A stretch of 64,000 nucleotides of DNA from an uncultured Chloroflexia bacterium (GTDB taxonomy: Bacteria; Chloroflexota; Anaerolineae; CG2-30-64-16), in the NCBI GenBank assembly GCA_963810095.1, contig CAWEMM010000006.1, positions 1,419,353 to 1,483,352 on the forward strand, written 5' to 3'. Within the stretch, counting starts at the first letter, position 1, and every line of letters starts with the position of its first letter. Made by a program: the position numbers and the translations under genes. Positions 16,568-19,095 of this stretch are shown one piece after another. The notes beneath the pieces are model-generated. The model searched no databases. It was given only the letters and a program-made list of their open reading frames with translations, and was not told the DNA's origin.

Positions 16568-17360
16568 TCAGTTTGCGGTGGGAAGATGCAGCACGGCGTA
16601 TAGGTTCAGATTGCCTTCGTGGCCGTCGGAGAAAAAGGTCTCCTGCGCCCCAAGGCCCGCCGCGGCCGCCATTTCTTTGAGCTCCGCCTCGTCGATGTAC
16701 GCGCAATAGCGGGCCCCCGGCGATCCTTCCCCCCACCCCACCAGGTAGTCGTTGCGCTCGACCTCGGCCAGATCGATCCCGACAGAATCCCAGGAGGCGA
16801 TGCGCTTTCTGAGCCGGTCGGAGGCCATGAACTGCCAGGTGGACACGATCAGGGGCGCGCCGGGCGGCAGCAGGGCTGCGCTCCGCCGCGAGAAACTCGA
16901 TGCGGTGACTGCGGCCGGGGATGTGGTGCAGGACCGCCAGGCAGACCGCTGCGTCAAACGGGCCCGCTTGAGACAAGGCGCCGGGCCAGTCGGGCGCGAA
17001 GAGGTCGGCCTCGACGAGCGCGGACGGGATGCGCGGGCGCTGCGCAGCCGTGGCGGCTGCATCTGCCAGCAGGTTCGTGCTGCTGTCCAGCCCCGTGTAG
17101 CGGCCGGTCCAGCCGCTGTCGTCGAGGAAGACGAGGAACCGGGCGTTGCCGCAGCCCAGGTCGAGGACGTTGAACCCGTTTTCCAGATAGGGTAGAATGC
17201 GGCTGAAGCCGGGGGGCCACGAGCGCCGGGTGCGCGAGAACTCGCCGGCGAAGCGCGCATAGAACTGCCTGTTGAGCGCGAGGAGCGCGGCGACCGTCTG
17301 GGGTTGCATTTGATCTTGCGGTTGGCTTTGATCTTGAGGTTGCATGTGTTGAGGTTGCAT
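16568..17360 (-). pseudogene. Trm9-like class I SAM-dependent methyltransferase with one +1 frame disruption near 16888
   Basis: The N-terminal part lies in the ORF 16500..17522 frame: YARFAGEFSRTRRSWPP, VLDLGCGN, AVLHHIPGRSHRIEFL. The C-terminal part lies in ORF 16568..17260: RRSAALLPPGAPLIVSTWQF ... RYCAYIDEAELKEM. Candidate starts are 17360, 17345 and 17309. Confidence 0.8.
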
Positions 17361-19095
17361 GGTTAACGAAACGAAACGAGCGTGGCGGCCGCACGGTCGC
17401 GACTTTGACGTGGCACAGCACAAGGAGGTGCTGCTGGCCATTTTCGAGGCGGTGGGCCGGCCCGGTCCATGGGATGCGCACAGCCTGCTGCGCATCTTAG
17501 CACAGCACCCGAGGGCCGACAAGGCTTCGCGCGACGCAGGTTTGAGCGGTTTCTATTCTAAGATCGAGCTGGTGACGGCCTACAAGCAGCTGACCGAGGG
17601 GGGCGAGCTGTCCTTCGACCGCGAGGTCATGCGCCGCCTGCAGATGAAGCCGGTCCGGACCTCGTCCGGCGTCGCGCCGGTCACGGTGCTGACAAAGCCT
17701 GCCGGCTGCCCCGGGCACTGCATCTTCTGCCCCGACGCGGACGGAATGCCGAAAAGCTATCTGCCCAACGAGCCCGGTGCGCGGCGAGCCGCCCAGTGCG
17801 AGTTCGACCCGTACCGGCAGATGATCACCCGGTTGAGCACTTTCAAGTCGATGGGCCACACCGCGGACAAGGTCGAGCTGCTGATCCTGGGGGGCACGTG
17901 GAGCGCCTACTCGAAGCAGTACCGCCAGTGGTTTGTCGGGCGCTGCCTGCAGGCGCTGAACGAGGCGGACGAGGTGGACCCGGTGTTCGCAGCCTCGGCC
18001 AGCACGGGCGAGGCGGAAGTGATGGACTGGGAGCGGCTGGCGGCGCTGCAGAGGGCCAACGAGGAAGCCGGTCACCGCAACGTGGGCCTGGTGGTAGAAA
18101 CCCGGCCGGATTGGGTCACCCCGGCCGAGGTCGCGCACATGCGCCGCCTAGGCGTGACGAAGGTCCAGCTGGGGGTGCAGAGCCTGGACGACGGTATTCT
18201 CGCCCTCAACGAGCGGGGGCATGATGTAGAGGCGGTGCGGCGGGCCGTGCGGCTGCTGCGGGCAGCCGGCTTCAAGCTGCACCTGCACTGGATGCCCAAC
18301 CTCTTCGGCGCAACGCCCGAATCGGACCGGGTCGACTTTGCGCGGCTGTGGTCAGACCCGGGGCTGCGGCCGGACGAGCTGAAGATTTATCCGTGTTCGA
18401 TCATCGAGGGCACCGAGTTGTACCGGCTGTGGCAGGCGGGTCAATTCCGGCCCTACACTGACGAAGAGCTGGTTGCGCTCGTCGCAGATTGCAAGACGAC
18501 CATCCCGCCCTACTGCCGCGTTAACCGGGTCTTTCGCGATATTCCTGCCGACGATATCGTGGCGGGCAGCAAGAAGTCGAACCTGCGACAGCTCGTGCAT
18601 GAGCGGCTGGCGCAGGAGGGCCGGCGCTGCAACTGCATCCGGTGCCGGGAAGTGCGGGCGGCTCGGGTGGCGGAGCTTGCGCTGGATTTGATCGAGCACG
18701 CGTATGACACCGACGCTACTCACGAGGCCTTTCTGAGCTACGAGACGGCGGAGGGCGCGCTGGCCGGCTTTCTCCGGCTGTCGACGCCGCGGGCACAAGC
18801 CGGCGGTAACTGGGCGGCCGAGACAGCCGAGATCTGGGAAGTGCTGCCCGAGCTGGCCGGCGCGGCGATGATCCGTGAGGTCCATGTTTACGGTCCGGCA
18901 CTGGGCATCGGCGCAGACAGCGCGGGCGAAGCGCAGCACCTGGGCCTTGGGCGCAAGCTGATCGGCGAGGCGAAGCGGCGGGCGCATGACGCCGGGTTCG
19001 ACCGGCTGGCCGTCATTTCGGCCATCGGCACCCGGCGCTACTACGAAGCCCAGGGTTTTGAGCGTATCGGATCGTACATGGTCGCGACGTTGTAG
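17359..19095 (+). CDS. elp3: Elp3-type radical SAM / GNAT tRNA wobble-uridine modification enzyme
   Basis: The radical-SAM cluster motif is CPGHCIFCP, followed by LGVTKVQLGVQSLDD. The C-terminal GNAT region reads GEAQHLGLGRKLIGEAKRRAHDAGF. The protein is 578 aa. Confidence 0.9.
   Translation: MVNETKRAWRPHGRDFDVAQHKEVLLAIFEAVGRPGPWDAHSLLRILAQHPRADKASRDAGLSGFYSKIELVTAYKQLTEGGELSFDREVMRRLQMKPVRTSSGVAPVTVLTKPAGCPGHCIFCPDADGMPKSYLPNEPGARRAAQCEFDPYRQMITRLSTFKSMGHTADKVELLILGGTWSAYSKQYRQWFVGRCLQALNEADEVDPVFAASASTGEAEVMDWERLAALQRANEEAGHRNVGLVVETRPDWVTPAEVAHMRRLGVTKVQLGVQSLDDGILALNERGHDVEAVRRAVRLLRAAGFKLHLHWMPNLFGATPESDRVDFARLWSDPGLRPDELKIYPCSIIEGTELYRLWQAGQFRPYTDEELVALVADCKTTIPPYCRVNRVFRDIPADDIVAGSKKSNLRQLVHERLAQEGRRCNCIRCREVRAARVAELALDLIEHAYDTDATHEAFLSYETAEGALAGFLRLSTPRAQAGGNWAAETAEIWEVLPELAGAAMIREVHVYGPALGIGADSAGEAQHLGLGRKLIGEAKRRAHDAGFDRLAVISAIGTRRYYEAQGFERIGSYMVATL

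Follow-up and report, generated by a model that had tools for sequence, protein, structure and literature searches.

A head-to-head Elp3 and Trm9-like methyltransferase gene pair in an uncultured Chloroflexia bacterium, a predicted bacterial module for wobble uridine modification

The window analyzed here is a 64,000-nucleotide (64-kb) stretch of DNA from an uncultured Chloroflexia bacterium (GTDB lineage Bacteria; Chloroflexota; Anaerolineae; CG2-30-64-16), taken from contig CAWEMM010000006.1 of GenBank assembly GCA_963810095.1 (positions 1,419,353 to 1,483,352, forward strand). It contains, at 16568-19095, a gene for Elp3 and, running in the opposite direction from it, a gene for a methyltransferase resembling the tRNA methyltransferases Trm9 and ALKBH8. 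An initial annotation, made from the sequence alone, had considered this pair a possible complete Elongator-type wobble uridine pathway. Our computational analysis established the identities of both genes, their family relationships, the conservation of their residues and their synteny, as well as a frameshift, a duplicated gene start and -10 motifs fixed in rare codons. The features of the locus, with positions counted from the first letter of the window, are as follows.

17359-19095, plus strand: Elp3 gene, an intact open reading frame (ORF) of 578 amino acids (aa) with radical S-adenosylmethionine (SAM) and GNAT/KAT domains, predicted to be a synthase of 5-carboxymethyluridine (cm5U) at tRNA position U34.
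17707-17730, plus strand: codons of the Elp3 Fe-S cluster motif C117-x3-C121-x2-C124 (CPGHCIFC), read from the translation and aligned with CPGKCIYC in the Elp3 of Dehalococcoides mccartyi (DmcElp3).
16893-17360, minus strand: 5' segment of the Trm9-like methyltransferase gene (frame A), from ATG 17360 (in-frame alternatives at 17345 and 17309) to ...HHIPGRSHRIEFL.
16568-16889, minus strand: 3' segment of the same gene (frame B; RSAALLPPGAPLIVSTWQF ... RYCAYIDEAEL ... GNLNLYAVLHLPTAN), with the stop codon at 16568-16570.
16883-16892, minus strand: frameshift site, one surplus base in GCGGCGG relative to intact relatives, located by protein and DNA alignments and by the phase of G+C content at third codon positions (GC3).
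17358-17361, both strands: CATG shared by the two annotated start codons (plus-strand ATG at 17359, minus-strand ATG at 17360).
17299-17361, both strands: tandem duplication array of the methyltransferase start, with units of 18, 18 and 15 nucleotides (nt), from a repeat search and alignment with relatives.
17351-17354, plus strand: GAGG, resembling a Shine-Dalgarno element and placed 4 nt before the Elp3 ATG, found by reading the sequence.
17170-17198, plus strand: predicted Elp3 promoter inside the methyltransferase coding sequence (CDS), with -35 TTGAAC, a 17-nt spacer and -10 TAGAAT.
17494-17522, minus strand: predicted methyltransferase promoter inside the Elp3 CDS, with -35 TTGTCG (17522-17517), a 17-nt spacer and extended -10 TGcTAAGAT (17502-17494).
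16534-16566, plus strand: GC-rich hairpin of 15 bp followed by TTTT, terminator-like, between the ends of the convergent LysM gene (16513) and the methyltransferase gene (16568).

The plus-strand gene is a clear Elp3, as the initial annotation had stated. Its product scored 496.8 bits against the NCBIfam model TIGR01211 (ELP3; cutoff 350) over residues 88-576, and the Pfam domains Radical_SAM, Radical_SAM_C and a weak Acetyltransf_10 were detected, the last of these being a GNAT match of 22.3 bits that lies slightly below the Pfam cutoff. Both the radical-SAM motif (CPGHCIFCP) and the C-terminal GNAT domain that had been reported for the protein were confirmed. The closest solved structures were DmcElp3 (5L7J, E 4.8e-106) and the Elp3 of Methanocaldococcus infernus (E ~3e-104), followed by eukaryotic Elp3 structures (E ~1e-81). 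The acetyl-CoA motif QHxGxG is present (AQHLGLGRKL, aligned to AQHRGLGRKL in DmcElp3), and so is the three-cysteine zinc linker CxCxxC (RRCNCIRCREV, aligned to QKCRCIRCREY in DmcElp3), a zinc site that has been described as a feature of bacterial and archaeal Elp3 (PMC6367351). The window protein shares with DmcElp3 the two domains, the Cx3Cx2C motif, the linker and the acetyl-CoA motif, but differs from it by approximately 95 extra N-terminal residues, the alignment starting at residue 97. An extended N-terminus is required for tRNA binding by archaeal Elp3 (PMC6367351). The nearest genome is an uncultured Anaerolineales metagenome-assembled genome (MAG), with identities of 76% for Elp3 and 65% for the methyltransferase.

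The methyltransferase exhibits the class I SAM-dependent fold, including motif I and the acidic SAM-binding residue that corresponds to D72 of Saccharomyces cerevisiae Trm9. Automatic annotation at the Joint Genome Institute (JGI), which is based on KEGG Orthology (KO), names many of its homologs TRM9 or ALKBH8, while the NCBI label for the same homologs is merely "class I SAM-dependent methyltransferase". A profile of the bacterial family (A1) was compared by hhalign with a profile of 17 aligned authentic yeast Trm9 proteins (A2); the yeast sequence used as seed agreed in full (100% identity) with database entry P0121 ("Trm9p [S. cerevisiae]"). The match reached 98.4% probability (E 9.2e-15) over 210 columns (20-249 versus 24-282) and covers the full length from the N-terminal helix through the last beta-strands, beyond the generic Rossmann core. 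Searches in both directions were specific: a hidden Markov model (HMM) built from yeast Trm9 only gave 83 matches among 3,705 ORFs of at least 100 aa in 948 kb of bacterial DNA, all of them the methyltransferase, and in the reverse search all 120 Trm9 proteins scored 25-45 bits, with the best unrelated ORF at 21.7 bits. This placement favors the assignment to the Trm9/ALKBH8 type made in the initial annotation, and every methyltransferase motif quoted there was found in the sequence.

The conservation of individual residues points in the same direction. In yeast Trm9, alanine substitutions of R29, D72, H116, W145, W168, R241, Y243 and N271 lead to loss of function, with Y243A leaving about 10% activity and conferring zymocin resistance, while those of H24, K31, R122, E148, Q149 and D270 retain function (Létoquart et al. 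2015, PMC4678810). Seven of the eight essential residues are retained, the exception being Tyr243. Among 78 members of the bacterial family the counts were 76 for R29, 73 for D72 (the other five having Glu), 77 each for H116, W145 and R241, 58 for W168 and 64 for N271; Y18 (75/78) and H115 (77/78) are likewise conserved. The positions at which alanine gave a wild-type phenotype (H24, K31, R122, E148 and Q149) displayed no conservation in the same 78 proteins. The window equivalents of R29, H116, W145, W168, R241 and N271 are R45, H146, W176, W191, R218 and N253. Six of the conserved residues, Y18, R29, H115, H116, R241 and N271, have a proposed role in binding the carboxylate of cm5U and the uracil ring (PMC4678810). 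Together with the profile match, this retention of essential but not of dispensable positions supports a Trm9/ALKBH8-type enzyme. One protein that is 74% identical to the window methyltransferase (P0003) carries the NCBI label "Nitrososphaerales archaeon"; it probably derives from a mis-binned bacterial contig, because it is close to Anaerolineales sequences.

The association of the two genes extends well beyond the window. One genome per GTDB species was scanned, at least 406 loci with relatives of the methyltransferase were found, and 80 of them were retrieved (individual loci are given below by L numbers). In 66 of the 80 loci encoding the methyltransferase family, the gene immediately before it, on the other strand, was Elp3; three of the other 14 lacked upstream DNA, which leaves 66 of 77 informative loci. 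According to their record titles, the paired loci belong to Anaerolineae, Caldilineae, Chloroflexia, several Patescibacteria lineages, Thermoanaerobaculia/Acidobacteriota and Myxococcota, and also include a Gammaproteobacteria MAG and Spirochaetes, although the binning of MAGs may be imperfect. Clustering of the neighboring ORFs at all loci recovered no third conserved gene (Trm112, Kti12-like or thiolase), and Elp3 and the methyltransferase were the only recurrent ones. This synteny, like the profile placement, favors the initial annotation and suggests that the two proteins are functionally linked. In ten Thermoanaerobaculia/"Multivorans" loci (L040, L048, L050, L051, L057, L059, L060, L064, L074 and L080) a gene of approximately 0.9 kb lies between Elp3 and the methyltransferase. 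This lineage-specific insertion has a TGGGSGIG motif that suggests a short-chain dehydrogenase, and the pair is still divergent.

The pair was also observed in D. mccartyi. In CP019867.1 (L084) Elp3 lies at 5001-6380 on the plus strand and a divergent methyltransferase of 224 aa at 4283-4957 on the minus strand. The latter matched the Trm9 profile with 98.4% probability (E 8.5e-15) and belongs to a different subfamily from that of the window, in which the RYY motif is kept (KRYYRLY) and the genes are separated by a 43-bp spacer rather than overlapping at their starts. QueH, another tRNA modification gene, is situated about 2 kb from this pair. A second Dehalococcoidia genome (L085) displayed the same head-to-head arrangement, while a third genome of Dehalococcoidia type (L086) encodes Elp3 without an adjacent methyltransferase.

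The individual components of such a system are known from other organisms. Formation of cm5U in vitro has been shown for the Elp3 of M. infernus (MinElp3; PMC7663514), and in archaea clustering of Elp3 with Trm9 was already noted in Sulfolobus solfataricus, Trm9-Trm112 has been characterized and the Trm9 step has been shown in Haloferax volcanii (PMC6144793). Bacterial Elp3 has been described as confined to Dehalococcoides (PMC7663514) and as "a rare example" (PMC6367351), while a 2026 paper reports Elp3 in "numerous bacteria" (PMC13315578). No mention of a bacterial Trm9 partner of Elp3 was found in the searchable literature, which did not cover Glatt 2016. The locus in the window would be a two-gene divergent module that modifies the tRNA wobble uridine U34. 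Elp3 would use SAM and acetyl-CoA to add a carboxymethyl group at C5 of U34, yielding cm5U, and the methyltransferase would methyl-esterify its carboxyl group to give 5-methoxycarbonylmethyluridine (mcm5U). We regard a bacterial Elp3 and Trm9-like module making mcm5U34 as the probable function of the locus; the "complete pathway" of the initial annotation stands as a prediction, in which the mcm5U product is derived from the sequence comparisons described above. The sole match to a tRNA or Rfam family in the window, tRNA-Leu(CAA) at 35299-35382 on the plus strand, has no U34 and is no candidate substrate.

Several observations weigh against this reading. Pfam and NCBIfam, neither of which has a Trm9-specific model, gave generic class I methyltransferase matches only. 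The equivalent of Tyr243 is Cys220 in the window and Cys (56/78), Val (16/78) or another residue (6/78) in the family. Eukaryotic and archaeal Trm9 require Trm112, and a Trm112 sequence probe combined with a motif scan, a weak test, revealed no Trm112-like ORF in the window or within approximately 6 kb in 86 loci. According to a review, xcm5U34 derivatives lack direct evidence in bacteria, and the activity of DmcElp3 in vitro is only weak (PMC7663514). On balance, the bacterial protein shares with Trm9/ALKBH8 the class I SAM fold, a full-length profile match, the N-terminal Y..(I/F)A..F..TR...WP helix, the HH pair, the equivalents of W145, W168, R241 and N271 and the genomic tie to Elp3, but differs from it in its bacterial host, in Tyr243, in the absence of the long Lys/Glu-rich insertion of yeast Trm9 and in the apparent lack of a nearby Trm112. 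Compared with the archaeal system represented by M. infernus Elp3 and H. volcanii Trm9-Trm112, it has in common a stand-alone Elp3 without other Elongator subunits and may differ in the need for Trm112, with which archaeal Trm9 works. Judged by its sequence, the methyltransferase is Trm9-like and forms part of a divergent bacterial subfamily; because Tyr243 is replaced, it is not a strict Trm9 ortholog.

One alternative concerns the integrity of the methyltransferase gene, which the initial annotation had taken for a single ORF. Because 16568-17360 measures 793 nt and is not a multiple of three, the gene is not one continuous ORF and is read in two frames. The frame of ATG 17360 encodes the N-terminal two thirds up to ...AVLHHIPGRSHRIEFL, including the N-terminal Y34/R45 motif, SAM motif I (LDLGCGN), D92 and H145-H146, while the C-terminal third (...RSAALLPPGAPLIVSTWQF...PTAN, followed by the stop codon) sits in a second frame with W176, W191, R218 and N253, the counterparts of Trm9 W145, W168, R241 and N271. 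In a protein alignment 26 intact homologs of approximately 245 aa continue across the junction in one frame (...EFL-x-R-SAxLLPPGAPLIVSTWQF...), and a DNA alignment with the intact loci L081, L083 and L001 showed that the window has exactly one base too many, within CTCGCGGCGGAGC at 16883-16892 of the plus strand. Independently, a GC3 plot placed the change of coding phase here as well, with no stop codon. Programmed frameshifting at this site was rejected, as all relatives stay in one frame there.

The gene could be a genuine recent pseudogene, in which case Elp3 would act alone, the pathway would end at cm5U or a derivative without methyl esterification, and the organism could lack the second step. 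The insertion of one nucleotide removes the conserved C-terminal third with the equivalents of W176, W191, R218 and N253, the GCGGCGG site is no long homopolymer, and the pair can be uncoupled, as seen in approximately 11 of the 77 informative loci, which lack an adjacent Elp3, and in the unaccompanied Elp3 of L086. On the other hand, apart from this one lesion the methyltransferase contains neither stops nor further indels, and the sequence encoded in the downstream frame is fully conserved. By GC3 phase, translation and Pfam, frame breaks also affect at least three unrelated genes of the same 64 kb, one of them several times, which fits a systematic indel error, and a comparable scatter is found in L053 (5670-7026), a MAG taken to be a long-read assembly, in which the same methyltransferase is spread over several frames and Elp3 is fragmented. 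Because at least three unrelated genes are broken alike and the methyltransferase is otherwise conserved with a single lesion, we favor, with reasonable confidence, an assembly indel as the cause of the frame break and consider a true pseudogene unlikely.

The methyltransferase might also act on the Elp3 product or on U34 without making mcm5U, by forming another ester, by methylating a different atom or by acting on a carboxymethoxy-uridine in the manner of CmoM, with the similarity to Trm9 reflecting a shared carboxylate-binding site. The residues that would hold the carboxylate and the uracil ring are conserved, however, the conserved partner is Elp3 rather than CmoA or CmoB, matches to CmoM-type NCBIfam models were absent at E <0.01, and RYY is kept in the Dehalococcoides subfamily, all of which makes this alternative improbable. 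An unrelated class I enzyme that uses a small-molecule or protein substrate and sits next to Elp3 without functional meaning would agree with the generic Pfam domains, with the low rank of Trm9 in PDB sequence searches and with top PDB sequence and fold matches to assorted small-molecule or uncharacterized methyltransferases, but this reading of the methyltransferase is highly improbable given the recurrence of the pair in phyla with entirely different surrounding genes, the full-length Trm9 match with selectively conserved essential residues and the specificity of the reciprocal searches.

As the initial annotation had noted, both start codons overlap in a single CATG, and no intergenic DNA is present. 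The same overlap is inferred for the nearest relatives (L001, L002, L003, L004, L007 and L010), while in lineages further away the two genes are separated by AT-rich spacers of an ordinary kind, 20-150 bp long. The duplication array comprises three tandem 18-nt units at 17299-17352 and an exact 13-nt repeat, TTGAGGTTGCATG, at 17334-17346 and 17349-17361. Tandem Repeats Finder did not score the array, which was recovered by a short-seed repeat search. It creates the three in-frame minus-strand ATGs at 17360, 17345 and 17309 and duplicates the plus-strand GAGG-N4-ATG of Elp3, which is carried by TTGAGGTTGCATG as well. The first 20 methyltransferase codons had been described as a QPQ-rich tandem-repeat tract; the repeats are real, and the "QPQ" codons turned out to be additional copies of the codons with which the gene itself begins (ATGCAACCTCA...). 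The start unit is present once in L001 (MQPQTV...) and twice in L081 and L083, with more copies in the window. Because homologs begin at the equivalent of Met18 (ATG 17309), the tract may not be translated.

The GAGG at 17351-17354 is the reverse complement of the methyltransferase codons CAA-CCT-C (Gln-Pro) and was also found in L001, L002, L081 and L083 but is absent from L003, L004 and L007. Because the extra copy of TTGAGGTTGCATG carries GAGG-N4-ATG, it makes a two-codon upstream ORF (ATG TGT TGA, 17344-17352, plus strand) in the predicted Elp3 leader, and the stop codon of this ORF overlaps the GAGG of the real Elp3 start.

Each gene appears to have its promoter embedded in the first 50-65 codons of the other. 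The candidate Elp3 promoter, TTGAAC-17-TAGAAT, was the sole sigma-70-like site found in 16400-17800 (0.1 expected), and TTG-N20-TAGAAT occurs once in the 64 kb (0.02 expected). Its -10 element is the reverse complement of methyltransferase codons Ile55-Leu56 (ATT CTA); in the window CTA accounts for 1% of Leu codons and ATT for 19% of Ile codons. The 13 nearest relatives use ATT CTA (10), ATT TTA (2) or ATT GTA (1) at this site, so that the opposite strand reads TAGAAT, TAAAAT and TACAAT, respectively. The extended -10 of the candidate methyltransferase promoter is the reverse complement of Elp3 codons Ile46-Leu47-Ala48, which are ATC TTA GCA in 12 of the 13 relatives and ATC TTA TCA in L010, TTA making up 2% of Leu codons. 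TGnTAAGAT is kept in all 13 (as TGcTAAGAT or TGaTAAGAT), the Ala-to-Ser change in L010 preserving the motif, and TGNTAAGAT is found nowhere else in the 64 kb. Elp3 has 255 conserved degenerate positions, at only 17 of which all 13 sequences use the same codon, and codons 46-48 are the sole adjacent and the sole rare ones among these 17. In distant relatives with a normal spacer, TAGAAT-like boxes are located inside the spacer.

If both elements are active, the sigma-70-type promoters P(elp3) at 17170-17198 (plus strand) and P(mt) at 17522-17494 (minus strand) would face each other approximately 290 bp apart. Transcription would start near 17205 (plus) and 17487 (minus) and converge over about 280 nt, giving the Elp3 transcript a leader of approximately 154 nt and the methyltransferase transcript one of about 127-178 nt. 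Over about 280 nt the 5' parts of both mRNAs would be complementary, which would permit coupled or mutually interfering expression. Two points speak against this interpretation: the methyltransferase promoter, with 8 of 12 hexamer positions matched, escaped the scanner, and we infer both promoter activity and antisense overlap from consensus matches and conservation alone.

The rare-codon strings ATT-CTA and ATC-TTA-GCA could instead bind a protein, form an RNA structure or cause a programmed pause in translation, with leaderless mRNAs or distant promoters driving the genes, an alternative that would affect the regulatory part of our interpretation only. The weak -35 of the methyltransferase promoter (TTGTCG) agrees with it, as does the fact that the TTG of both -35 boxes is accounted for by conserved Asn and Lys codons, and to our knowledge the sigma-factor specificity of Chloroflexota is poorly characterized. 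Against it, both strings form strong -10 elements (TAnAAT and TGnTAAGAT) on the strand that points to the partner gene, a TTG lies exactly 17 nt upstream of each, the TGn extension survives the amino acid change in L010, each motif is single in the 64 kb, and similar boxes occupy the spacers of distant relatives. We thus think it doubtful that the strings are something other than promoters. Leaderless mRNA as the cause of the missing spacer was rejected, since no consistent -10 was present at the right distance from either ATG and embedded promoters fit better.

The predicted arrangement resembles the divergent units known as excludons, in which long complementary 5' leaders act on each other and the genes typically have opposing functions. 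Facing predicted promoters approximately 290 bp apart and a complementary 5' leader of about 280 nt are the common features, while the location of both predicted promoters within a CDS, the overlap of the start codons and the membership of both genes in the same pathway would set the locus apart from excludons.

In the broadest reading, many bacteria may carry a self-contained Elp3 and Trm9-like module that makes mcm5U34 or its 2-thio derivative mcm5s2U34, perhaps without Trm112. Among its carriers would be Chloroflexota (Dehalococcoides included), Patescibacteria, Acidobacteriota and Myxococcota, together with some Proteobacteria and Spirochaetes. Within the Anaerolineales clade to which the window belongs, all intergenic DNA would have been lost, the promoters would be mutually embedded and antisense leaders would couple expression. 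This combined reading is put forward tentatively, as a possibility that falls somewhat short of being probable in all its parts.

Several other genes of the window deserve mention. Among those with frame breaks, an HDAC-family deacetylase (28541-29825, minus strand) is frameshifted near 29.04-29.12 kb, with Hist_deacetyl profile positions 3-134 in one frame (28851-29825) and 135-284 in another (28541-29119). A metallophosphoesterase with a transmembrane N-terminus (27465-28722, minus strand) appears split near 28.15-28.2 kb, one part (...LVLRHYEVPVSGWSGP) being in one frame and a second (RAVRVAHLSDFHL..., with the Metallophos domain) in another. A GH2-family glycosidase (49002-51960, plus strand) is spread over at least three frames, with Glyco_hydro_2 in one, the TIM barrel (profile positions 7-157 of 302) in another and further GC3 phase changes near 50.6, 50.95 and 51.7 kb; it represents a decayed gene or several consensus indels. 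Following the gene for a protein with two cNMP-binding domains (37066-38812, plus strand), a GC3 phase switch was observed near 37.8-38.0 kb, and the frame entered there specifies a transmembrane helix, followed by a Pro/Thr-rich linker and a C-terminal domain that Pfam does not recognize; a further frameshift or a pair of overlapping genes could explain this.

Two likely selenoproteins are encoded downstream of Elp3. A GrdB-like ORF of the glycine/sarcosine/betaine reductase B family (19544-20293, plus strand) reads on past an in-frame TGA at 20024-20026 (LTPC*PIC). It adjoins a Rdx/SelW-family ORF (20330-20593, plus strand) with an in-frame TGA at 20360-20362 in a CxxU motif (IEFCVA*NY), at which ordinary ORF calling truncates the gene.

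The pathway and both protein families are already known, and automatic KO annotation already labels homologs of the methyltransferase TRM9. What appears to be undescribed is how widely the two genes are paired in bacteria, the occurrence of the pair in D. mccartyi and the predicted embedding of the promoters. Bacterial Elp3 is usually accompanied by what looks like a dedicated Trm9-like methyltransferase, in several phyla and including the model organism D. mccartyi. This pairing predicts in bacteria a tRNA modification documented so far only in eukaryotes and archaea, and the product of bacterial Elp3 in vivo becomes a concrete prediction, namely mcm5U34. Being small and perhaps independent of Trm112, the bacterial proteins would be practical reagents in the biochemical study of Trm9. 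The embedded promoters fixed in rare codons, if true, would constitute a natural case of dual coding combined with divergent transcription that overlaps at its 5' ends. Finally, the distribution of the pair bears on the history of the two wobble uridine systems, the Elp3 type and the MnmE/MnmG type.

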